A stretch of DNA of 64,000 nucleotides from Octopus vulgaris (taxonomy: Eukaryota), in NCBI GenBank assembly GCA_951406725.2, contig OX597824.1, positions 65,658,001-65,722,000 of the forward strand, read 5' to 3'. Each line of letters opens with the position of its first letter. The first letter of the stretch is position 1. Shown piece by piece: positions 5,501 to 59,300 of the stretch. The notes beneath the pieces are model-generated. The model had not been told where the DNA came from and ran no database searches. It saw only the letters and a program-made list of their open reading frames with translations. The position numbers and the translations under genes were made by a program.

Positions 5501-8500
5501 AAATTGTTTATACTTCTACAATACACAAAATATTTTAATTGTTTTTATGCATTTCATAATAATGTTTAAAAATATAGCAGGATTACTTTTATATCCTTAG
5601 AATTGCTCTGGAGGTCCAGTAGAGTAAAATAGGAATCAAAGGAGTCCATAGCTAAAAAATTATTGAGAACCTCTAACCCCTCAAAGCAGTGCTTTAGCAT
5701 GGCTGCACTGCAGTTACTGAAATGAGTAAACATTAAAAGATTGTTAGCAAAAGAAAAATATGTCAAGAGTGGAATTTGAAAATAGGTTATGCAACTAGAT
5801 ATCACTTTGAACTTGCTTCCATTTGGTGACATTCATCAGTGTTTATAAAGTAATGTTGCTTTAATGTGTAAGATTCCATAAGCAATCCTTGGTTGAAGAC
5901 AATGCAGTGATATTACTTTATTTTCACCCATTTAACTATTTCAGTCAACTGTTATTTATCATGATGGTTAACATTTTTAAGTGCTGTCATAACTGCCTCG
6001 GAGCAAGATTTTAAGCAATTCATAACACTTCATCATTCAGCGTGTAACATCATCCATTCACATTAAATATTCATACCAATTTGATTGTCCCTTTTGCATA
6101 CATCTGTCAAAACTATGATGTCCAGTTGCTTTGCTAACATTGCACGTGCATCAAAACTTCCTTATTCCTCTCTAACTGCTAAGGTTCTAATATATTCACT
6201 ATCCACATTTCCCTACCATCACACTTGTGATAAATGATTCATGTACTCTCCCTGCTATGCATGCAATAACTGAATTTCTTAACCCATTGGGTTGTTGAAG
6301 AACTATACCCAATTCTCTTACAATGCAATATGTATAGAGAGTGAATCAGCTTGGCAGAGTTTATCCTTTTTTGTTTTTTTCTTTTCAAATCCCATCTGTT
6401 GGAAGTGTTTCACTGGAAGTTAAAAGAAGAATGCAGCAATATTACAGTGCCACTGCTGTATATAGTAGTGAGTTTTCCTGCTCTGTGATGCTTATTTACA
6501 GCTTGGGGCACTGAACTAATTGAGACTTCAGTGTCTCGGCCACAGGCAGATTATAAAGTTTATATCAGTATATGAAATACTGGTCTTCTTATTGATTCAA
6601 CTTTTCACAGTCTCTGTATTGATAGTAAGAATGCAAAAACATTCTTGGTAAAGTTACATGAATTCCTTTCTTCAAGATCTTTGACCACTATATTAATTGC
6701 TTCAAGAGATATTATTACTATCTGTGATACATTCAAAGTGAAGTTCAATCTTGCTTGCTTGCAATGTTACACAGCCAAACTGGCACATAATGGTAAAATA
6801 CTTTGAATAAAATACTTTGAATGGAATAAAACAAGTTTCGCATAAATCTGATCAGTAGTTCTTGAGATATTTGGTGTTTTGGGGTATAAATACCCAAAAT
6901 GGTGCATAATGGGAAAACACACTGAAAATAACTTAGCCCTGAAAGGCAAGAAACTGTAACCTTTCCATTAGACACATTATGATGGGGAAAATATTTTTAA
7001 GTGAAAATGACTTTAAAAATACGGTAAATATTTCATAAAAGACACGTTTGTAACCTCAGTGTAAAATAGTTTTTTTCCATAGGTTTTTTTTGAGTGCATT
7101 CAACGTATTCCACCTCCAAAGATTTGGCTGCTATTTCTAGCACACCTTGCTACCACGTAACAGCTTTTTTTGTGATAAAGGACCTGAAATACCTGTTATA
7201 TGGTAGCAGGGCATGCAAGAAATAGCAACTAAATCTTTCCTTTTCTGGGGAAAGGTGCCGTTTATACATGATTTTGATGTCACATTCATTGAAAGCATGC
7301 AATATAACATAGAAAAGAAAAAAAAACCTACAAAACAAAACTCCATTGCTGGGAAACTCAGACTTCTCCAGTGACCCAACGGGTCACTGGTAGACTAGTT
7401 ACTATTTTTATTATCATGAAGACTGCAAGCTGGCAGATCATTAACGTAGGAGACAAAATACTTAGTATTTCTTCCCACTTTTCATGTTCTGAGTTCAAAT
7501 GCTACTAAGGTTGACTTTGCCTTTCATTCTTTTTAAGGATTGATAAAATAAGTTCCAGCCAAATACTGAGATTGATGTAATCAACTAAACCTCTCCTCTT
7601 TAAATTTGCTGGCTGTCTGCCAAAATTTGAAACCTGTATTATTACTTTTATTATCATCATTAGGACAGTGAGCTGGCAGAATTGTTAGTACATTGAGCTA
7701 AATGCTTAACAGCATTTCATCTAATTCTTCATGTTTTGAGTTCAAATTCTGAGGCCAACTTGGCCTTTCACCCTTTCAGGGTTAATAAAATAAGTACCGG
7801 TTGAGTATAGAGGTTGATGTAATTGACTAGCCCTTCTGCCAAAATTTCAGGCCTTATTATTAACACCATTATATCATCTGTTGAATACTTGGCTTTCATT
7901 ATTTTTTTTTTTTTATATATATCTTTTTCTTAATGTAATTTATATTTAATTTTCTCTCATAAAACTGTAATATTGTTGCTGTTGAATTCAGAAAGTCAAA
8001 GAGAATTTCTAGGATTACTTCCATTGTGAAGTTTTTATTTTTATCAGAGTCAACTGTATAATGACCTATGTATATTTCATTTCTAGTTACAATTCGAATG
8101 GTGGGAAAGCATGGATATTTATCTGCAAATGAGTGGCCCCTTCTGTTGGTAAGTTTAGTTGTTTTTAAAACTTATAATATTTCAAATTGTTCTTGTTGAA
8201 TAACCCCATTGCACATCATGTCTGAAGCTTCGATAAAGCTATAGGATGATACACAAGCATTCAACTGTGGGTGCATTACTTCTTGTAGCAGAAACAGCTG
8301 TAAGCTAGTGAAATACATGACATAATTTCTTATTCCTTCATCGTTTAACATCCACTTTCCATGTTGTAATAGGTTGGACACTTTGATTAAGAACTGGCTA
8401 GTCAGGAGGCTGCACCAGGCTCCAATCTGATCTGGCAAGGTTTATACAGCTGGATGCCCTTCCTAATGCTAACCACTCTGAGAGTGTAGTGGGTACTTTT

Positions 8501-11500
8501 TATGTGCCACTGGCATGGGGGCCAGTCAGGTGGTACTGCTATTGACCACGCTCAAATGGTGCTTTTTATGTACCACCAGCACGGGACCAGTCAGGCGGCA
8601 CTGGCATCAACCACACTTGTATGGTGCTTTTTATGTGCCACCAGCACAGAAACCAGTCCGATGGGACTGGCATTGACCACACTCTAATGGTGCTTTTTAT
8701 GTGCTACCAGCACAAATGCCAGTCAGGTGGTACTGGCACTGGCCATGACACTGATTTCACTTGATTCAACAGGTCTTCTCAAGCGCAGTATCTTTCCCAA
8801 TGATTGAAGGGTACCCTTAAATGGGCCGGTTATGTGACACTGGGATAGTTCACAGCTAGTCTCACTTGGCTTGCCAGGTCTTCTCAAATACAGTATATCT
8901 CCAAAGGTCTCGGTTACTTGTCATTGACTTCATGAGGCCCATTGTCATTTTAATTTCGGCACATAAAAAACACCATCCGAGCGTGGCCGTTTGCCAGCCT
9001 CGTCTGGCACCTGTGTCGGTGGCACATAAAATCACCCACTACACTCTCGGAGTGGTTGGCGTTAGGAAGGGCATCCAGCTGTAGAAACACTGCCAGATCT
9101 GACTGGACTGGTGCAGCTTTCGGGCTCCCCAGACCCCAGTTGAACTGTCCAACCCATGCTAGCATGGAAAGCGGACGTTAAATGATGATGATGATGATGA
9201 TGATTACTGCTCTGTACTCAGCTGATGCATTATTCTGAAGCATATGTATACTGAGTTCTAACACCCAGTTATTAGTATTGCTATGCCTAAGCAATATAAT
9301 AAAATACACACACTCAAACACGCACACACACACACACATGCACAGTGTATGTGTATATACACACACACACGCACACATGGATGAGTGGAGAAATGAAAGA
9401 GGCATTCAACACATTTAGCAGGAGTTACATACAAAGGGTGTTCATTAAAAATTTCCCCTGACCCACTTCTCAAGGACTGGGATAAATGAAACTTGGCATA
9501 ATTATTAGTCCTTCTCTACATAGCCACCACCAATGGTGACACACTTCTCCCATTGCTTTATGCAGATGTAAAACCTTGTCTGTGGAAGTTGGTAGGTTGC
9601 ATCTGTGACCAAGACTTTACATCATCCAAAAAGTGCTTCCCCTTCAAAAAAGGCTTCATAGGTGGAAAGAGGTGGAAGTGAGATGTTGCAAAGTCAGGAG
9701 AGTAAGGAAGATGAGGAAGGATTTCATAGCCGCAGGAGTGTGCTTCCATCTGGGCAATATGCGCATTGTGAACTGAGGTGTTGTCTTGGTGGAGGCAGAC
9801 TCCTTGGGTCAGTATGCCATGCCTCTCTGCTTTGATGACACTGCACAATTTCTTTAGCAGAAAAGCATAATATACTCTGTTAACTGTGGTTCCCTTTGCC
9901 AGAAAATCTATCATTGCTACTTCATGCTGGTCTCAAAAGACTGTGAGCATCACCTTGCCTGCTAAGGGTTGGACATGAGCTTTCTTTGGAGGTGGTGAGT
10001 TATCATGCTTCCATTGCTTTGACTGGACTTTAGTCTCAGGATCATATTGATGGACCCACGTTTCATCCTGTGTGATAAGTCTGCCAAAAAGTCCTCCTCA
10101 TTTTCTTGGCACGTTGCCGAAAAAGCCTGGGAGTAATTGACTCATTCCTGCTTCTGAAAATGTGTGAGCATCCGGGGAATCCATCGTGCAAACGACTTCT
10201 GCATGTGCAAATGGTCATGAATGATTTTTTTCCTCTGCTTATCTTCACTTCATGGGCTAGCTGCCAAATAGTCATGCAACGATCCTCCAAAATGATGGCT
10301 TCCACTTTATGAATGGTGTCATCATCAACGGTGGAATGTAGTCATCCATGAATAGGAGCAGTTTCCTCCAATGTCCAACCACATTTGAACTAGCAATGCC
10401 AGTTCTTGGTTACATCATATGATGGTGCATCATCACCATAAACTTCTTTCATCTCATTGAAAGTCTCTTTTGCTGTATGACCTTTCGAGTATAAGCACCT
10501 GATCACTGATCTGCATTCAACTGCCTCCATTATAACACCTTAGTCCACTTCAGCAGCCGTAAAAGACAAACAAATACTAGTGAAAAGCTGCAATTTACAA
10601 TATGACATGTAGAAACATGTATAATTATACCTGTATAAGTTCCATTTCCTGCAATAACTGGATTAGAGGAAATCTTTAATGAAAACCCCTCATATATTAT
10701 TATTTAAAACAGTTTGACTTGGCCCCGTGCAGCTTAAAGTTTCATAGGTTTCTTACAGAAGCCTAGTTCATCAGCATGGGCCTAATCAAACTGTTTTAAA
10801 TAATAATAATAGTAATAATAGACAATAAGAAGAGCATGATGCGATTTGTAATAGATTGTTTATTTAACGGTTTGGATGATATTTCAACAGATCATCTGTC
10901 TTCTTCAGGTTCAAAATGTAAAATGGAAACAATCGCAGAAACGGAAATACAAAATATTAATGAGGCAATCTTGCGTTCACATTTTGATAGAATCGCATCA
11001 TCAGTTTTCAATTTTATAACTGGTAAAAGGAAAATAACATAGCTAAAATTAGCAAGGAAAGTTAAACTTCCACACATAATTTTAGCAATCAAAGTAAAAT
11101 TTGTGATAGAATTCCTTTAGTAATTAACTGGCACTGAAATTTCACTTGCATTTCAAAAGTGTTACATGAAAGTTACTTGTATATTGCAGAAAAATATCCT
11201 CATTTCAAACAAATGTTCCTTTAGCCACAATAGAAATATAACAGAAATATTAACCACTGCCTTTAACTTCAAGAAAACTATCATTGGAGTTTCTGAATGC
11301 TGCACTTAGAAAAACAGCTGCAAGAGAAGTAAGCCCTGTTCATTGTGCAACAACATGAGTCAAATCAATTCTATCATGTATCATAACAGAAATGTTATGA
11401 TTTATATGGAAGGTGGGACACATATAGATTCTCATTTGGTGTATGCAGCAGAATGCACCAAACACAACTTGGTTTATATTGATTGTACAATAGAACAATT

Positions 11501-35387: not shown

Positions 35388-38300
35388 CTGAAAAAAAAAA
35401 AGAAGAGATTATTAGTCATATGATATACAAAATCTTTTCTTCAATAACCCATTCCACCCTCATCTATTCCCACCTTCTATATCCCCATTTCTTCTCACAC
35501 CTTCCATGTACACTTGCCCTTAAGATAGCCTTATACAACCCGCCTTACACCTTTCTACCCCACTCCTCCCTTTATCACATACCTAACATCAATCCTATTC
35601 CTCTTCCTGCTATATTTCCCTCTCCTACCAACTCAATAGTGTCTCCTCTATTATGAGACTCCCTACTACCACCCTCTTACAAGAAACCTGTTCCTCTAAT
35701 TCTACTTCACCCTCTTTTCTATTCTTCAGTTATAGGAGCCACTTAAGGCCCTTAGCTTTGCAAGTTGGAAAGCAACACTATTAGCATTGATGCTACAAAA
35801 AAGAAAGAAAAAAAAAAGCACCCTGGTTGAGTTATGTCAAGGGATGTGCATCCAACCATAGAAACCATGCCAAAATAGACATTGAAGCAAGATGTAATGC
35901 TCTGATTTGTTGGATCTTGTCAAATCATACAACCTGTGTCAGCATGGAAAGGGGGCATTAAGTGATATTAGAGAAGCTCAAAGTTTACTAGTAGTTCAAA
36001 TACCATATTAGGTTCTCTGAGTTTCTGAACAAAAAAACTTAAGTGTTCAAAAATAGCAATCAAATTTGAAAATACTTATCACAACAGACTGATATTCTAT
36101 TACAGGTCACATTGCTCAAATACCTAACATCTACTCCCTCACTGAATGGGAGATTATATGTTTTTATGAACATCAAGGCTTTGTTGACATATAAGAAAAA
36201 ACTACTAAATTTGATCAGGACATTATTTTCAGTTAGAATAATTATATGTAGATATTTATTTTGTATCACAACTCCCGCAGTACACTTTTTTGTAATGAGA
36301 GGGAATTATTTAAAGGAGATTTAGTTGGTATTTCTAGCAGATAGTGACCTTGACATGTGCGAAGTGTAATTGTAATGTTAACATTCAGTGCCAGATGTAT
36401 ACTGCATGTACAATTTGAAAACATATGGATAAGATTGGGCTTATTGGTACTATGTAAATGTTGGAACTCCCTGTTCCCTTTTTTAAATAAAGAAGTATAA
36501 CTAAAATTTCAAGCAGTTAGTTCATAACAAGAAGATTGTTTGAAATTATAAGATATTGAAATAAAAGTGCATGAAATATAAAACGGGTTTAGAGAAAACT
36601 GTTCTATGTAGTAGCAGCCTTTACACAAATCAGTTGAAAATAAATACTCACCTCTCCTCTGAAGTTGTTTGATCTCCAATTTTCTGAATAGTGCTGCTTT
36701 CACTACTTTTGTTGTTGTTGCTGCCATTAGACTTGAAAAAATTTGTAATATTCTTCTGCCAATCTGGAGTTGGCCGTGAACAGACTGGGTTACCTCCTGA
36801 ATATTTGTCTGCATGAAAGAAAATTTATACGTCTCGTCAGTTTTTATCCAACAACAGACAAAATTTGACAAATCAGTTTGTAAGGTAATCACACCAAAAT
36901 GGGTTGTGTAGTGTAATCCTAGATAACCCTAGATATCAAGAGCACAACAGGAATGCTTTTGACCGGAGCTAAATAAAAACATACCCATGTTTACTAGTAA
37001 AAAAATAGTTATGCATAAGGCACTCCACTAGCCAGTTAATATCATACTTGATTATGCAATTGCAAAATTTGCAGAAACAATATTTCTGATTAGGCACAAG
37101 ACCAGCAATTTTGAGCAAAGGAGTTAATAGTACCACCAACTTCAGTATTTCGCTAGTATTTACTTTATAGACTTTGGAGGAATGAAAAAGTTGACCTTAG
37201 TGAGATTTGAACTCAGAACATAAAGAGCAATAATAATTTTTTTAAATTTTGGCACAAGACCAGCAACTTTGAGAGGGAAAGGAAAATTGGTTACACAAAA
37301 TCCAGTGCTCAAATGGAACTTCTTTTATTGACCCTTGAAAGGATGAAAAGTAAAGGATGGCAGAATTTGAACTCAGAACATAAAGAGTCAGAAGAAATGC
37401 TGCTAAGTATTTTGCCCAACAGATAATGATTCTACTAGTTTGCCACTTTTAATAATAATAACCCTTTCTACTATAGGCACAAAGCCTAAAATTTTGGAGG
37501 AGGGGACTAGTCAATTACATCGACCCCAATGCTTCATCATCATTGTTTAACATCCATTTTCCATGCTAGCATGGGTTGGACGGTTCAACCAGGGTCTGGG
37601 AAGCCAGGCTCCAATCTGATCTGGCAGCATTTCTACAGCCGGATGCCCTTCCTAACGTCAACCACTCCGTGAGTGTAGTGGGTGCTTTTTACGTGCCACC
37701 GGCACAGCGGCCAGAGGAGGCTGGCAAACGGCCACGATCAGTTGGTGCTTTTTATGTGTCACAGACACGGATGCCAGCCAGGCGGCACTGGCATCGGCCA
37801 CATTTGGATGGTGCTTTTTACATGCCACCAGCACGGGTGACTCCGAAAGGATGAAAGGCAAAGTTGACCCCAGCAGAAATTAAACTCAGACTGTAAAGAT
37901 GAACCAAATGCCACTAAGTGTTTCACCCTGTGTGCTAACAGTCCTGCCAGTTCACCACCTTAATAATAAAACAACAACAAAAATATAAAAGCAAAAGTGA
38001 AAAATACTTAAAATACTGTCCACTATTGCAGCAGAGTTGGGTTAATAAAGGAAAAATTGAACTTACTTGATGTACTTGGAGATGAGGGTTCTGAGCTGGT
38101 GCAAGGACCAAGACTTTTGCGGGGTGCCCGAGCAGCCACAGCTGAATAAATGGAAAATAGGTAGAATCAGGGATGAAAAATTAACATATAGGATGGCACC
38201 TTTCCCTTTAGGTAACCAATAATTTTAAACTAAAGCTTCTTTGTATATATTTATTTCTTCACAAATGTCATCTCTTCAAGATTAAAGCATAAATTTTTTA

Positions 38301-50300: not shown

Positions 50301-53300
50301 GTTCAGGGAGGAGCTGCTTCACACAGCTACTACAGCATTATGACTGGGTACTGAACTAGCAGCTCAGCCACTCAAATGTGTATGTGATATATCTTGACTA
50401 GTACTAGGCAGAGAGGCAATGGTCAGCATGAGCAGGATCTGGAAGAGTAGAGACATCAGACTCGCTACCAAATGCAGATTGGTGAATGCAATTGTCTTCC
50501 CAATAGCAACATATGGATGCGAGACCTCTGGACACTAAAGAAAACTGACCAGAAGAGAATTAATGCATTCGAGCTTTGGTGTTGGAGAAGACTTTTACGG
50601 ATTCCATGGACAGCGAGGCTCACCAATGGAGAAGTTCTTAAGCAGATAAGGCCGAAAATGTCGCTAGAAGCTAGGATCACCAAGCATAGATTGGCATATT
50701 TCGGTCATATTATGCGGAGAAAATCCGCGGAGAAGGACATCATGCTCGGAATGGTCAGTGGCAAGAGAGAAAGAGGCCGACCAAGAACCCGCTGGCTTGA
50801 CACCATCAAGAGTGATACCGGAATGGACATAGCCAATCTGAAAGAAGCGGCCCAGGATAGAACTGACTGGAGGATACTGATCCGAGTGACCGAGAGTCGA
50901 CTTCGACTGAACAGTTAGAGAGATGTCAAAGCCTTTGACAAAGTTGATCATGGGATATGCCACAAACTGCGTGACTTTTGTATCACTGGAAAACTGGGTG
51001 AGTGGCTGCATGACTTTTTGAAAGGCAGAAGTCAGGCAGTTGCAACCAATGGTGCTCTCTCTGGGGAGACATCATTTCACTGCAGAGTTCCTCAAGGAAC
51101 TGTGCTGGGACCATTACTGTTTGTGATGGCTCTCTCAGCCACTTTCATAAGCTATCAAGAACCCTGATGACATATTAAAACTGCAAAATGACCTGAATGC
51201 AATGTACAAATGGGCTGATGAAACAAGCATGCAGGACCAGAGGTAGTGCAATCCCAGAGTCAGTCAGTCAGTAACCTGGGAATTCACATGAGTAATGAGG
51301 CAACATTCCATACTAAGATTGCAACACTGCAAGTGAGTAGTTGGATGGATTCTGAGGTCATTCACAACTAGGATAAAGGATACCATGCTACTCATATGGA
51401 GAACTTTCATTCTCAGTCATCTGGATCACTGCTCCCAGCTGTGATCACTGCAGAGCATCAAACTGGTGACAGAACTTGAGGCAATCCAGTGCCACTTCTC
51501 AAAGAAAATTGACTTGGTGAAACAGATGAGCTATTGGGAAAGGCTAAAGGAACTGAAGTGCTACTCTCTAGAGAAAAGGCATAGGAAATATGCAGTGATA
51601 TACACATGGAAGATCCTGGAAAGTTTAGCTCCCAAATTTGGAATTGGGAGCTATATCAACCATTGAGCTGGACAACATTGCATAGTATCAAAGATCCTGT
51701 CTTCTCCATCTAGAATTAGGCCTCAGTACTGTAACTGCTTGGGTTTCAAGGGTCCATAATGTTTAACATTCTGCCAGACAACCCCAGAAGTTTGTGAGGT
51801 GTAGATGTGGAAGCCTTCAAACAGCATCTGGACAAATTTTTATGAGATAGCAGATGAACCCATAGCACTGCAGGAAGAACAAAGAAGAGCAGTTCCATCT
51901 GACTACTTTAAAAACAGTACAGTAAAGAAACCCAAACTCACTGCAAGGCAGTGCTCAGTTTCTGCCTGAAACCTGTAAAACATAAAAGATATATATATGT
52001 GTGTGTGTATATATATATATACATACATGGACATATTTATACATGTGCGTGTGTGTATACATACATATTGTTGTACCTGATTCTCAACATCCATTGACAA
52101 GGCTGCAAAAGTAACGAAAAGTTTGGAAGGAAAAATATAAATAGTAAATGAGTGGAAATAGAACAGGTGAGTGTGTTAGATAATAAGACATTAAAACACC
52201 AGACACAACAAAATTTGCTTCAAGACACGAATTCACAGAAGAAATCTTGCAAACCAGATACAAAAATTAAGTATATATATGATATATATATATATATAAT
52301 AAATTTGATAGATCTAAATAAACTGAATATACCATAACATATATTTGCCTACTAAGTGTGGCATCCTATATAGGAGAGTGCTATTGATGTTTATAGCCCC
52401 AGGAAGACATCTCCTCTAGCTGGCTAAAGATACACATTCTGTGTCCAAATAGTATTTGTGAGGGGAGATCATTGCTCCCATCTCTAGTCTTATGTGATAC
52501 ACATGGACTCAAGTTTCTGGGTAGTTACCTGTCCTCAGTGTGTGTTAATCACCAGCTAGTGATAAATTCTTTATTATGATCATAAGATCTAACATAGAGG
52601 GTACAGCACATATAATGTTCATGAGTTCATTTAGTTTATGCAGTTAAAATATTAAATGATATACATTTGTGATGAGTGTTAATTATAATGAATTATTTCA
52701 TATTTTGGCCAGGAAGTCTACCAGCTACACCATACAAATTTACTGTGTATTTAAGCAGGGTCATTCATACCCAACTTCCTCATCACATCCTTCCGTCTTT
52801 TCCCGTATATGCTTCATGACAGACATCCCATCTCCAGCCCTATCTTGCTCTTCAGATGATATCTAAAGTAGTACAGTAAAACAGGGCTGTAGATGAAGGT
52901 TCCTGTCACGACTCCGTTCATCCTCGTTTTTACAATACATATTTCTTGTGACCTAAGGTCATCCAGGAGACAAGTTTGCTTCCATTTTGACTCTAGGCCA
53001 TGCACATTTATGCACCCTAACTTAATTCCTTAGAAATCTGTACTTACATTTTGATTTTGGTGAGGGTTTGCATGAATTCAGCTTCCCACCCCCATCCTCC
53101 TCATTCTATGGTGTAGCCGCTGGACTCACAAAGAAGCTCTTGCCAGCCATCTCTGTGCTTACGTCCTTTATATCTTTGTGTCAGTTCATTGAACAAACCT
53201 GCTTCCATCCTGGCCATCTGAATGTGAGCTGGCAAGTCTTGGCTTGCTTTGTACACTTCTGCTTTATGATGTGCATGTATAATTCATGACAAAGCTTTGT

Positions 53301-56300
53301 TGCTGACTTTAAATGATACAATTTTGTATTGTATTTTGGGGTGGGGTTTGGAGATGGGTTTTAACAGGGGGATGGTGTTTCTGTATGGGGAGGGGAGTCT
53401 GGGACTGAGGCCTTTTTTTTCTTTTTTGAGATTTCACTAATGTAAATCCTATTTCTTCTTCTGTGGTTGGTGTTTCTTGCCTTGGTTTGCTTTCCTTGGG
53501 CACTTCTACTTATTTTTTGGTTGTTTTCCTTTTCCTTCTGTATCTTTAGATTTTTGCTGAAGAGGGGCTTTGCTCTTTTTCTCTTTGCATTCTGAGCAGG
53601 CGTGGCCTTTTTTGCTGCACTTAAAACAGTGCGGCCTATATCCTTCAATGCTCACTCTTATGCTCAGCCCCTCCTCTATGAACACCTTATCAGGAAGTCC
53701 TTCAAGGATTTCAGGACTGGCTTGGACTACCATTTCAAGTAACTGGCCTTTCCAATTTCCTGCCTCTTTTTTCTGTATTTGTAGTATTGGCATTTTTTCT
53801 TCCATGTCGTATGTTACGGCTGCTACAAACCACTACACATCCAAACCAGCCAGAATCTCCTCCACTTTAATTTTCATCCTTCTCCTACCTAGATAAGTTG
53901 GCTGGAGAATTATTTCATTGTTTCTCAGTGTTAATGTCAACAGTTCATTTGCTGTACTCTCGTCAGTGAATTGTACCTCCACTGTAGCACTTCTTATACC
54001 ACATCTGACGTTTTTTATTTTATTCCAGACGTGTTGCATGCACTTCTGAATTACTTCATTCTTGACAGACATTGTTTCTCCTTAAGACTGTATGTTTTAT
54101 AGACCACAGTCTTGGTAGCTATATTCTGTAGTATATCTTGGGGAGGGAGCTACTTTGTATCATTCCCTGTTTTCTTTATCATATTCCGGTATTTAAATAA
54201 TTCTGCCATAGATACATTCAAATTCACCATATTGCTGCCAATGGCAGCTGAAAAACTGGGTCTTTCCTTCTGAACTTGTTTTTCCCCTTCCTTTTCGCCC
54301 TCTTTTGCCCTTTCCATCTCTGGGAAGTCCAAAATTGACTCTAAGTCAAATTCCATATTAAATACAAAATTCTTTAACAGGACACGCAAAATGTTTTCAA
54401 AAACTGACAAAAAAATTTTTTGCCAAAAAAATTGTCTTTTACAAAAAATAATTTTTAAACAGAACAATTTTTTCCCTGTAAAAGGGCAAAAATCAAAGTT
54501 CACAGTTCTCCAACATAACAGAACTTTCTGCCCTGCAGGGTGAAAACAACTGTTAACAAAATAACCGAGGTTCAAACTTCACAGGTTTAACAATTCAATG
54601 GAATAAAACACAAACAGTAGAAGCATAACATTAGAATTACCGCAAAACGAACTCACAAAAATCCAACAATTACAAGCTCGTGATGGAAGTTTATTCCACT
54701 TGCAAATTACTATGTATTTTCCAGCGACTCACTGTCACTGATCTCGAAGAAGAGAGAGAATGTTATATTAAATCTCTGAACGAGATATAAACAGTAGCAA
54801 TACGGTGCCATAACATATTTTTGCCAACTAAGTGTGCCATCCTATACAGGACAGTGCTACTGATGTTCACAGCCCCAGGAAGACATCTCCTCCAGTTAAC
54901 TAAATACACTCATTCTGTGTCCAATTAGTATTTGCGAGGGGAGGTCATCACTCCCATCTCTAGCCTTATGTGATACACACAGACTCTAGTTTCTGGGTGG
55001 TTACCCGTCCTTAGCGTGTGTTAATCACCAGCTACTTGCTCAGAGATTTATTGTAACAAACATGGGGCTATAAACATCAGTAGCACTGTCCTGTAAAGGG
55101 CACCATACTTAGTTGGCAAATATATGTTATGGTTCCGTGCTGCTACTGTTTATATCTCACTCAGAGATTTAATATAACATTTTCTCTTCTATGAGATCAG
55201 CGACAGTGAATCGCGAGAAAAATATATAGTAATTTGTGAGCAGAATAAGCTTCCATCACTAACTGATGATTAACATACTCTGAGGATGGGTAACCACCCA
55301 GAAACTTGAGTCTGTGCATATCACATAAGGCTAGAGATGGGAGCGATGACCTCTCCTCGCAAATACTAATCAGACTCAGAGTATGTCATTGGCCAGCTGG
55401 TGGAGATGTCTTCCTGGGGCTATAAGCATCAGGTGCACTGTCTTGTATAGGATGCCACACTTAGTTGGCAAATATATGTTAGAGTTCTGTACTGCTACTG
55501 TTTATATCTTGCTGAGAGATGTAATATAACATTCTTCTATGAAGTAATATAGTTTTTAAAATAAAACCTAATAGAGAGTTTCCTTTAGGTATTTTTACAA
55601 TAAAATTTACAGTCTATGGGAACTGAAATAATTCAATATAAATGGTTTTACTGTGGTTAGTAGTCACTGTAACTTGTAATGAATGGTATTTGGCATTATG
55701 ATGTAATACTTGAGTTATGTGACATATTTGAGTTATGTAATTAGCTTATGGTGTCAGCTTGTATATATTCGAAATGCTTAGTCATTAGCTATTATTATTT
55801 TGCATTTACTAAGTTTGGAATATTTTCAATCAAACAGTTTATGAAAATAATGTTAGGTCTAGGTTTTTACTCCTATTTACCACATACACGTTATGTTTCA
55901 GACTTATGAACCAACATGGTTCTTTTTTTTTTTTAATCCCTGTTGGTAGCTACATCATACTGTCTGGTTTACTATACCCATAGATGCCTTTAGCAAAGTT
56001 CAGTCATTAGCAAGCATTCAGACCAGGCTTTCAGCTGAGGTCAATGTGAACTCATGATGCACTGGCACTCTCTATGCTTCCTGTCATGGCAAAAAATAAT
56101 TCTAAATGACAAGACAGTTTTCTTTCTTCTTCTCCACTATCCATGACTGATACAACCTATATACAAACCACACATCCTCTTCTCTGATACAGAATTCTTC
56201 CTCCATTTATGCTGTCAATACTATATTCTATACTCAAACTTCACTCTGAAAGGTGGTGTCTACCACTCAACTTTCTCGTTGGATATCAACAACTAAAACC

Positions 56301-59300
56301 TGCAATTACTGTTTTCCTGTCTGTTTTCCTGTTTACTAGAATTTTGGACTTTGCTAAGTTAACTTTAAGGACTGTTGGTTCCAGGTTTTGCTTCCACACC
56401 TACAATTTCTTTCTTAATTTTACTACAGATTACACTATAAGAACAAGGCTATCAGTATAAAGGAGACTATGGGCAACTGGTCTTAAAATCCTCTTTTATA
56501 ACCTGGAGAACTGTGATAATTAAGGGACAGAGAGTTGAGTTCTGGTGATCTACTTTTACACTAAATTCATTGCTGTACTCAGTGCTAACTCTCATACTGA
56601 CGGCACCTCAGTACATAGCTTAAATGACTCTTACCAACCATTTGTCTATTCTTAGCTTCCACTGCAACCATCAGGTCAGAGTGTAAGGTATCTTGTAAAA
56701 GGCTTTTTCTAGATCAACTAAAGCCAAGTACAACAGTTTATTTTTGGCTAAATACTTCTGCTTTACTAGAAAGAGAGCATCAGTAGTACTTCTTGGTACA
56801 AATTCAAACTGCATCTCATATAGTCTAACTCTCATCTGAATTAGTTATAAATCCTTCTGTAACTTTCATGACCTGATCCAGCAACTTGATATTCTGTAAT
56901 TACTCCTCTCTAAGGTATCTATTGCCTGCCCTCATTAATTTTTCCTGTATGTTATAGGTCCTCTTCCTCCTGCTCATCAGATGCTTCAGTTAGGACTTCT
57001 CTAAATCCCTGACTATTCAATGGCTCTTTAAGCTTCCATATCTCTCTTTTCCAGACTGGTTTGTGTCTCTAAGTTCTTCCAGTTCTAACTACTAACTTAC
57101 GTTGAATAGAACATCCTTCACAGGAGAAGGACTTTGCATTTACAACCATCTCCTTTCTTGTGAGAAAGTAATCACTCTGGCTTGTGTGCTCACCAGATTG
57201 ATCAGGTACTGGCAGGTTTCTTGAAGTTAATGTTGCAGATGATTTGGTCATTTGTATCACAACTCCTAGAGTCTTGTTCCCACCTCAAGATATATACATG
57301 TAGTTATGGCTATGTATGTGTATATATTTATATGTTAATGTATGTTGATATTGTATCTTATTTATTTTCAGGATGACAGTAGTTTGTACATATTCTTCAT
57401 TATACTCCTTGCTGTTTTTGTTATCAAACTATACCGGAAAGTTTTGACAGGTAAAAAGTAAAATATTTTTAGCTGAATTATTTTCAATTTCTCTCTCTTG
57501 CATTAAATGTTTACTGTTTTTCCTCAGGTATAAGGTCACTGAAGAATAAGTGGGGAGCTTCTGTTAAATATTTCTCTTGGCAGAAAGAACATTTGCGATA
57601 TCTAGCATGATGTTTTTGTAATTAACTAGCTAGTGTTTTAATGAATTTATGAATCTAAGTCCTTGATTTGTTGGTATAATAAAAGTTTTATACATAAGCT
57701 ATGGGATTTGATAAATTTGTGCCGTTTCAAAGATTATTAACAATATAAGTAGAAAGCAAAATCAAGTTAGATACATCATCATCATTGTCGTTTAACATCT
57801 GCTTTCCATGCTGGCATGGGTTGGATTGTTTGACTGAGGGCTGGCGAGCCAGAAGGCTGCACCAGGCTCCAATCTGATCTGGCAAAGTTTCTACAGCTGG
57901 ATGCCCTTCCTAACGCCAATCACTCCAAGAGTGTAGTGGATACTTTTACGTGCCACCTGCACAGGAGCCAGTCCAACAGTACTGGCAACGACCACACTTG
58001 AATGGTGTTTTTTTACATACCACTGGCACAGGAGCCAGTCAGGCGATGCTGGCAATGATCATGCTTGAATGGTGTTTTTTTTTTTGTGTCACCAGCCCTG
58101 GCAATGATCACACTCAAATGGTGCTTTTAATGTTCCAGGTGGTACTGTCATTGGCCATGACAATGATTTCACTTGTCTCAACATGTCTTCGCAAGCATAG
58201 TTTATTATTCAATGATTGAAGAGTACTCTTAAATAGGCTGGTTATGTAGCATTGGCTTAAGCCACGGTTATAGTCCCACTTGGCTTGCCGGGTCTTCTCA
58301 ATCATAGCATATCTCCAAAGGTCTTGGTCACTTGTCATTGCCTCAGTGAAGCCCAGTATTTGAAGGGCGTACTTCACCACCTCATCCCAGGTCTTCCTGG
58401 GTCTACCTCTTCCACAGGTTTCCTCAACTGCTAGGATGTGACACTTTTTCACACAGCTGTCCCCATCCATTTGCAACACGTGACCATACCAGTGCAGTCG
58501 TCTCTCTTGCGCACCATATCTGATGCTTCTTAAGTCCAACTTTTCTCTCATGGCACTTACACTGTCGTGTATGCACACTGACATTGCACATCCAGTGGAG
58601 CATAAAGGCTTCATTCCTTGCAAGCTTGCACATGTCCTCAGGAGTCATGGCCCATGTTTCACTGCCGTGTAGCATGTCTGTTTCACATGTGTCATATAGT
58701 CTACTTTTTACTCTGAGCTAGAGGCCCTTTGTCACCAGCAGAGGTAGGAGCTCTCTGAACTTTGCCCAGGCTATTCTTATTCTAGCAGCTACACTTTCAG
58801 AGCATCCAACTTGGTCACCTAGGTAACGGAAGCTATCAACTATTTGTAGTTTTTCCCCCTGAAATATGACAGAAGTTGTTCTCTGCACATTTTCAGTGTT
58901 TATTGCTCCTGAGCATTTGCCACACACAAAAAATATCTTCCCAGTTAGCCTTCTTTTGATATTGCTGCACTTTTTATATGTCCATAGCTTACACTGGGTA
59001 CATCTTATGGAGTTTCTACTTACACCTTTTCTACAGATCGAGCAGGGCCATCTACCTGAAGGGATTTGTGGTTTGTCTGCCTTCCTACTTATTAAGACTT
59101 TGGTTTTTGCTAGGTTGACTCTAAGGCCCTTCAATTCTAGTCCTTGCTTCCACACCTGAAACTTCTCTAATTCTGATAGTGACTCAGCTATTAGAGCAAG
59201 GTCGTCAGCATACAGGAGCTCTCAGGGACATCCTGTCTTGAATTCCTCTGTTATTGCCTTGAGGGCTATGATGAATAAGAGGAGACTGAGGACTGATCCT

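Follow-up and report, generated by a model that had tools for sequence, protein, structure and literature searches.

How does a long interspersed nuclear element (LINE) come to lie inside a small self-cleaving repeat, and whose promoter does it use? The question is raised by a locus of Octopus vulgaris (assembly GCA_951406725.2, contig OX597824.1, positions 65,658,001 to 65,722,000 of the forward strand); the whole 64,000-nt stretch is called the window here. It contains a 2104-bp LINE remnant on the minus strand (52564-54667), sandwiched by two parts of a 355-nt hammerhead repeat. The original prediction, made from the window alone, was that a LINE family may target arrays of such retrozymes and borrow their transcription and self-cleavage. 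Comparison with related copies strongly supports the view that the LINE clade targets one site in the hammerhead repeat and that its insertions are independent of each other. As the underlying mechanism we regard it as probable that the LINEs of this clade integrate at transcription start sites, where they capture the promoter from which they are then transcribed. The features on which the argument turns are given below in window coordinates, read from the sequence unless another basis is given.

52564..54667, minus strand: decayed, internally deleted LINE of the L1 group (Tx1-like); full-length relatives have about 4.9 kb
52547..52563, minus strand: downstream copy of the 17-nt target duplication, repeat positions +1..+17, near-palindromic
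54668..54684, minus strand: upstream copy of the duplication, 14/17 identical; predicted start of the LINE RNA
52332..52563, minus strand: portion of the host repeat downstream of the LINE, from +1 to about +232 (sequence comparison)
52494..52552, minus strand: type I hammerhead copy 1, predicted cut at 52506/52505 (+58), with an intact core and two missing stem-I pairs (core bases, family covariation)
54734..54742, minus strand: predicted proximal promoter element of small nuclear RNA (snRNA) type, 58 nt before the insertion point (best match of 189 positions to a U1/U2/U5 matrix)

A search with the last 307 nt of the LINE gave 582 candidates, of which 40 were scored and yielded 30 loci, the window included. 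At 23 of the 30 loci the LINE joins a hammerhead repeat just 5' of the ribozyme (14 in the window's family, five and four in two other families), while three join another LINE, two join other DNA, and two have no 3' end. The 14 window-family loci join the same base of the repeat and form one clade together with one tandem copy (support 100/99). They lie on many contigs, with different 5' truncations at the identical site and with differing outer flanks. From 2926 repeat candidates, obtained in a first-look search of the 2.8-Gb genome, it can be estimated that a given base and strand in these repeats would be hit by chance about once per two million insertions.

Alternatively, one or a few insertions could have spread as composites, either through segmental duplication or because the repeat itself was mobilised. 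The nearly identical junctions of the youngest family (L107-L109, L151-L153, L156) would fit this, as would the internal deletion common to the window and L048 and the lack of an upstream repeat at 5 of the 14 window-family loci, which is probably due to later rearrangement. However, the 5'-truncated copies L053, L055, L057 and L058 are joined to the upstream repeat half through duplications that differ in length (11-17 nt) and therefore do not represent one spread insertion. Moreover, one LINE clade sits in two repeat subtypes, LINE and flank subtypes are not matched one-to-one, and the hammerhead targets require six changes on the reverse transcriptase (RT) tree described below. Composite spread is largely refuted for the clade, and we consider it highly improbable. 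The proposal that the LINE family targets retrozymes is thus borne out: the flanks of the 3'-end copies, tabulated as had been suggested, contain different 5' truncations at one repeat site, in independent copies with mismatched LINE and flank subtypes, rather than random flanks or one segmentally duplicated insertion.

Young relatives were found by a protein search with 13739 candidates, and 60 of the 150 RT matches listed were fetched. Many of the 150 have open frames of more than 1000 aa and lie in tandem arrays; intact copies have frames of 1069-1166 aa, and full-length copies of ORF2 (second open reading frame) are what the original prediction had proposed to look for. Hammerhead repeats of several families are the targets of 27 of the 60 (four classed by eye, the others by descriptor), two copies are in U2 genes, four in the head of a short interspersed nuclear element (SINE), 17 at other targets and five in tandem, and five have no 3' end. 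All 50 hammerhead-repeat insertions, 23 from the first set and 27 from the young set, are co-oriented and lie just 5' of the hammerhead. That the window LINE is on the ribozyme strand had been noted before and is seen in the sequence.

The two U2 insertions, L101 (G000:C3:20826000-20835000) and L102 (C23:43308500-43317500), are intact-looking LINEs at the first base of the U2 snRNA gene, which is the Rfam-defined 5' end of U2; one of them is in tandem, and a neighbouring U2 copy is empty. In the U2-specific LINE Keno, the site is internal to the gene, in contrast to these insertions at its first base. The RTs of L101, L102 and L106 are less than 0.5% apart, yet they occupy U2 and hammerhead repeats. 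In an RT tree of 64 rows, rooted only at the midpoint, hammerhead targets are found on most branches, the U2 copies nest among near-identical hammerhead-site copies, and the group with other targets is one derived clade (88/99).

The snRNA genes themselves provided the means to look for a promoter at these sites. A short motif is present 57-59 nt before the U1 (12/12 loci), U5 (9/10) and U2 (1/1) genes and is missing before U6 (0/10 loci). A matrix built from the U1, U2 and U5 upstream regions alone has its best match at -57..-60 in 22 of 27 related repeat flanks, with a chance of 4% each; the repeat contains a promoter-like motif with the spacing of U1, U2 and U5. The G-type hammerhead family cannot be aligned with the other families, yet it has a weak motif peak at -57. 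Closely related LINE copies are found in unrelated target sequences at the same distance from promoter motifs. In the derived clade, a TATA box 28-31 nt upstream was recognized by eye in 8 of 16 distinct targets. The insertions suggest that hammerhead repeats carry an snRNA-type promoter, as does a hammerhead satellite of newt, satellite 2, according to the citation in PMC2220036. The repeat motif may well be an active promoter from which RNA starts at +1.

The 5' junctions point in the same direction. Among the 41 young loci for which both junctions are present, five have an extra short sequence between the 5' duplication and the LINE start; one tandem junction has such a sequence as well. 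The tag of L101/L102 matches +1..+14 of another hammerhead family at 13/14 bases, that of L132 matches the target of L142, and L136 has two such pieces. In L106, an element only 0.1% from its tree neighbours, the 5' copy of the duplication is identical to the tag usual in the family, and 2 of its 14 bases deviate from the 3' copy of the same element. We interpret the extra sequences as tags left from the start sites of former hosts. HeT-A likewise carries short 5' tags that derive from its donor site. Because foreign tags that begin at +1 are found at the 5' junctions, the simplest reading is that the LINE RNA would begin at the start position of the host promoter, which is the first duplicated base.

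Taken together, promoter capture would operate as follows. The host is a dispersed 355-nt, retrozyme-like type I hammerhead repeat with a putative internal promoter of the snRNA type for RNA polymerase II (Pol II). The L1-group clade would integrate by target-primed reverse transcription at the +1 of this promoter, in the sense of transcription, and would thereby duplicate the first 14-17 transcribed bases. Driven by the upstream promoter, transcription of the element would then start at the 5' duplication, and the LINE RNA would carry a short host-site tag at its start instead of an end made by an upstream ribozyme cut. The notion that the LINE borrows retrozyme transcription is retained in this scheme, but the source would be the snRNA-type promoter in the repeat and not read-through of an array. 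Whether the downstream hammerhead, with its cut at +58, trims the LINE 3' end is more doubtful; a polyadenylation hexamer immediately precedes the 3' end of the LINE, and relatives at U2 and other sites need no downstream hammerhead. More speculative still, and in our opinion rather unlikely in its entirety, is the extended scenario of a promoter-less animal LINE clade that is tethered to Pol II pre-initiation sites, has spread from hammerhead repeats with their snRNA-type promoters to U2 genes and to TATA promoters, and relies on the host for both ends of its RNA, with a captured promoter for the 5' end and a host hammerhead 58 nt downstream for the 3' end.

Several observations weigh against promoter capture. 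In the repeat flanks, the matrix match at the expected distance is second-ranked in two of the 27 cases and missed in three (L048; L149, at -50; L045, at -64), and the 27 flanks are mostly homologous and represent few independent cases. The TATA pattern was recognized by eye and without a background test. In a frequent multicopy target (L111, L138, L141, L148, L191-L193), the motif stands about 125 nt upstream of the insertion, and a clear TATA box is missing. An outgroup family that targets a SINE inserts within the SINE head. Since the LINE 3' ends are similar to the 2-5 bases that precede the site, +1 is uncertain by about 3 nt. Lastly, no insertion was found at the 12 U1 and 10 U5 loci examined, although these bear the motif; therefore, position alone is insufficient.

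Some of these points would be expected under ordinary Tx1-type specificity, in which the endonuclease reads a short near-palindromic target that overlaps the start site by chance conservation, and the LINE has its own promoter. The window target is near-palindromic, the targets of the U2-hitting subfamily have their first four bases and two later ones in common, the 22 U1 and U5 loci are free of insertions, and target choice has been described as set mainly by the endonuclease (PMC4494074). However, sequence recognition of this kind does not fit well with close relatives in unrelated sequences at one distance from the promoter motif, and the foreign 5' tags require RNAs that start at the start of the duplication. 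We therefore regard it as unlikely, although it is the strongest of the competitors. For promoter capture, it seems that the site would be picked by promoter-bound factors and a loose sequence preference together.

Two of the targets just mentioned have features of their own. The multicopy target of L111, L138, L141, L148 and L191-L193 hosts long tandem LINE arrays; it has no Rfam match and is possibly an unannotated small RNA gene. The SINE insertions belong to a more distant young LINE family (L112-L114, L116; 63% RT identity), which occupies one position inside the SINE head in four of the four copies seen.

A different source of the LINE RNA had been suggested by the two hammerheads that bracket the window element. 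The second one belongs to the upstream unit, which is followed by inverted copies:

54685..55039, minus strand: complete upstream unit of the repeat; its hammerhead copy 2 has a predicted cut at 54982/54981 and G5 changed to A at 55012
55063..55540, plus strand: inverted repeat copies, first a 5'-truncated unit, followed by an uninterrupted site at 55255 and hammerhead copy 3

Both cut positions of the original prediction, 52506/52505 and 54982/54981, are present in the sequence as predicted sites. Cleavage at both had been expected to release an RNA of about 2.48 kb, with the LINE co-transcribed with the array and cut out as a unit-plus-LINE RNA, in the manner of R2 with its ribozyme. The co-orientation of all 50 insertions just 5' of a hammerhead agrees with this idea, and among 34 loci with a visible 5' junction six are bracketed, four of them in the youngest family. 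The other 28 have no upstream hammerhead in the fetched flank (three reached the edge of the fetched sequence), the starts of the upstream segments are scattered with only two near +59 and do not pile up at the cut, the 5' tags begin at +1, relatives at U2 and other sites have no ribozyme, and copy 2 of the window has the G5 change. Because only 6 of 34 loci have upstream hammerheads and the segment starts are scattered, the 2.48-kb release does not appear to be the mechanism of the family, for which we give it very little chance, and it is unlikely at the window locus as well. With R2 the present LINE would nevertheless have in common the proposed dependence on a promoter outside the element, whereas the ribozyme here is part of the host repeat and is found 3' of the element rather than at its 5' end.

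The host repeat deserves a closer look. We assign it a type I hammerhead because of its core bases and the covariation in 18 family copies, Rfam being silent: in the window repeat, Rfam found no hammerhead at the gathering score or at E values up to 10, nor did it match one in 19 further loci. In the 18 copies 87.6% of the cells are paired, with 21 double changes; none of 500 shuffles was as high and slid controls gave 13-50%, values that are not a probability, as the copies are related. By these standards copy 2 of the window fails at G5, and the stem-I pairs lost in copy 1 are the two that adjoin the core. Minimum free energy folding of single hammerheads was uninformative (z from 0.51 to -1.67); one of five folded stretches missed the ribozyme, and copy 1 gave no hammerhead (z 0.06). 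Retrozymes have been characterized as tandem arrays with units of 150-450 bp and two or more complete hammerheads; the unit here has about 355 nt, and most of the 30 loci hold one to three partial or inverted units. The repeat resembles the non-LTR (long terminal repeat) retrozymes of PMC7229834 in its unit of about 350 nt, type I hammerhead, helix III of two pairs and tetraloop, and differs from them in its short arrays of one to three units and frequent inversions.

The LINE might also be the autonomous partner that mobilises the hammerhead repeats, as had been considered in the original prediction. The close physical association is the only point in favour; the LINE shares no sequence with 28 LINE-free repeat loci, and inverted 5' segments of the repeat are present at 17 of 34 loci. 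Such 5' inversions are of a kind typical of Penelope-like elements. Animal retrozymes have been tied to Penelope-like elements (bioRxiv 10.64898/2026.07.22.740005), and we see next to no prospect for a role of the LINE as their mobiliser. A Penelope-type frame (RT plus GIY-YIG) was not found in the 80 of 233 flank open reading frames (ORFs) that were scanned, a scan of flanks and not of the genome. Among contigs from sequencing runs, the element and the repeat also occur in runs labelled with three other organisms, and joints of empty sites are present in three runs; by a 31-letter rule, no record among them bridges the LINE/repeat junction, and no RNA start or end could be placed.

The window element itself is a dead, non-autonomous fossil. 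The remains of its two frames are the following:

53509..54356, minus strand: ORF1 remnant with frameshift and stops, 40-46% identical to the ORF1 of an intact relative with a CCHC zinc knuckle
52754..53023, minus strand: fused ORF2 stubs flanking a deletion junction of about 2.77 kb near 52930, with short microhomology and not an intron; the junction is common to L048

The two flanking parts of the repeat are 88% alike across 227 nt at a spacing of 2476. That the LINE was inserted into a retrozyme unit, and that the flanks are not an LTR pair, is supported by the existence of empty sites and by the variable flanks; the LTR-pair reading was rejected on these grounds. The uninterrupted empty site had been located near 55245-55265, which is right, and its first base is now placed at 55255. 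The flanking duplication was also recognized correctly, but its length is 17 nt instead of 10 nt, and the element therefore ends at 54667 and not at 54674; relatives have the same duplication with lengths of 11-17 nt. The distance of 18 nt given between the LINE end and stem I holds for the inner segment of the stem, whereas the outer segment overlaps the duplication.

Of ORF2, only residues of about 22-69 and 1070-1148 are left, in the numbering of the intact relative, with about 2.77 kb lost. The deletion common to the window and L048 points to a non-autonomous subfamily that has moved at least twice. The window, L048, L051 and L056 have three distinct internal deletions, with 3' points within about 6 nt, and the last approximately 370 nt are retained. 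Splicing was rejected as the origin of these deletions, since the junctions are not intron-like.

The class of the element was derived from the intact relative L103, which the ORF2 remnant of the window matches. The L103 ORF2 contains PF03372, PF00078 and PF13966 domains, i.e., an apurinic/apyrimidinic endonuclease (APE), an RT and a C-terminal zinc finger, and among solved structures it is closest to the human L1 ORF2p (E 1.5e-67; R2, E 2.7e-25). These domains, the similarity to L1 ORF2p, and the target duplications and 5' truncations expected from target-primed reverse transcription place the element in the L1 group. The Tx1 clade is characterized by a CCHC zinc knuckle in ORF1, which L103 has (PF00098 at 21.1 bits, cut-off 20.8) and which was not detected as PF00098 in the two ORF1 pieces of the window. 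It is also characterized by target specificity, defined as more than 20% of the flanks being of one sequence type (PMC4494074); 14 of 15 window-clade copies join the hammerhead repeat, the remaining one being a tandem join. The homologues found in searches bear no informative names. We therefore call the element an L1-group LINE that is Tx1-like, where Tx1 denotes only a likeness.

Target-specific LINEs of the Tx1 clade are already known, e.g., Tx1L in Tx1D, Keno in U2 snRNA genes and Tx1-Mar in Mariner-N4 (PMC4494074). The present LINE resembles these in its ORF2 with APE, RT and zinc finger, a multicopy repeat or RNA gene as target, long duplications and head-to-tail arrays; it differs from them in that its target is a hammerhead repeat and its sites follow promoter spacing across unrelated sequences. 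Also known are elements that are placed by factors at or near starts of RNA polymerase III (Pol III) transcription, namely Ty3, Tj1, TRE5 and NLTR-A, of which TRE5 and NLTR-A belong to the L1 clade and the TRE5 ORF1 protein binds TFIIIB (PMC5911963). They have in common with the present LINE an insertion positioned at or near the transcription start, but they are found at Pol III genes, in contrast to the predicted Pol II promoters of snRNA or TATA type here. TRE5 inserts upstream in the opposite sense, the present LINE at +1 in the same sense. Metazoan retrozymes have been described before (PMC7229834; bioRxiv 10.64898/2026.07.22.740005, the accessible text of which does not mention Tx1), and L1-Tx1 families are listed without targets in the accessible part of PMC13282606. 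Our literature search, which did not extend to Repbase and most subscription papers, found neither hammerhead repeats nor Pol II start sites described as places of LINE insertion. The LINE at the present locus is genuine and targeted.

Nearly identical proteins here insert into unrelated sequences at one promoter spacing, and tethering can therefore be tested directly in an animal LINE of which intact young copies exist. The site choice of APE-type LINEs is usually credited to the sequence preference of the endonuclease. For metazoan retrozymes, the place where transcription starts has been an open question, and the insertions would also mark it in hammerhead repeats. A LINE that inserts at +1 of a promoter of choice would be attractive as an insertion tool.

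Several further observations concern the repeats and LINEs outside the window. The repeat copies L068-L096 have three preferred ends (about +226, +277 and +290), often beside dinucleotide runs and often joined to inverted 5' pieces. In the hammerhead families at L099, L106, L107-L109, L133, L165 and L019-L029, core positions 3, 4 and 8 vary recurrently, and the helix III region is self-complementary over 6-10 nt, which suggests dimeric cleavage. At G000:C9:59206543-59249484, at least seven RT matches at a spacing of about 5.28 kb form a long head-to-tail LINE array. An open frame of 715 aa (L061:7538-9682) looks by eye like the N-terminal part of a Helitron Rep/helicase. Within the window, fragments of other LINE RT-like frames lie immediately left of the repeat (50451-51780), and a family of 66-67-nt tandem repeats forms three arrays at 8492-8745, 37681-37836 and 57944-58081.

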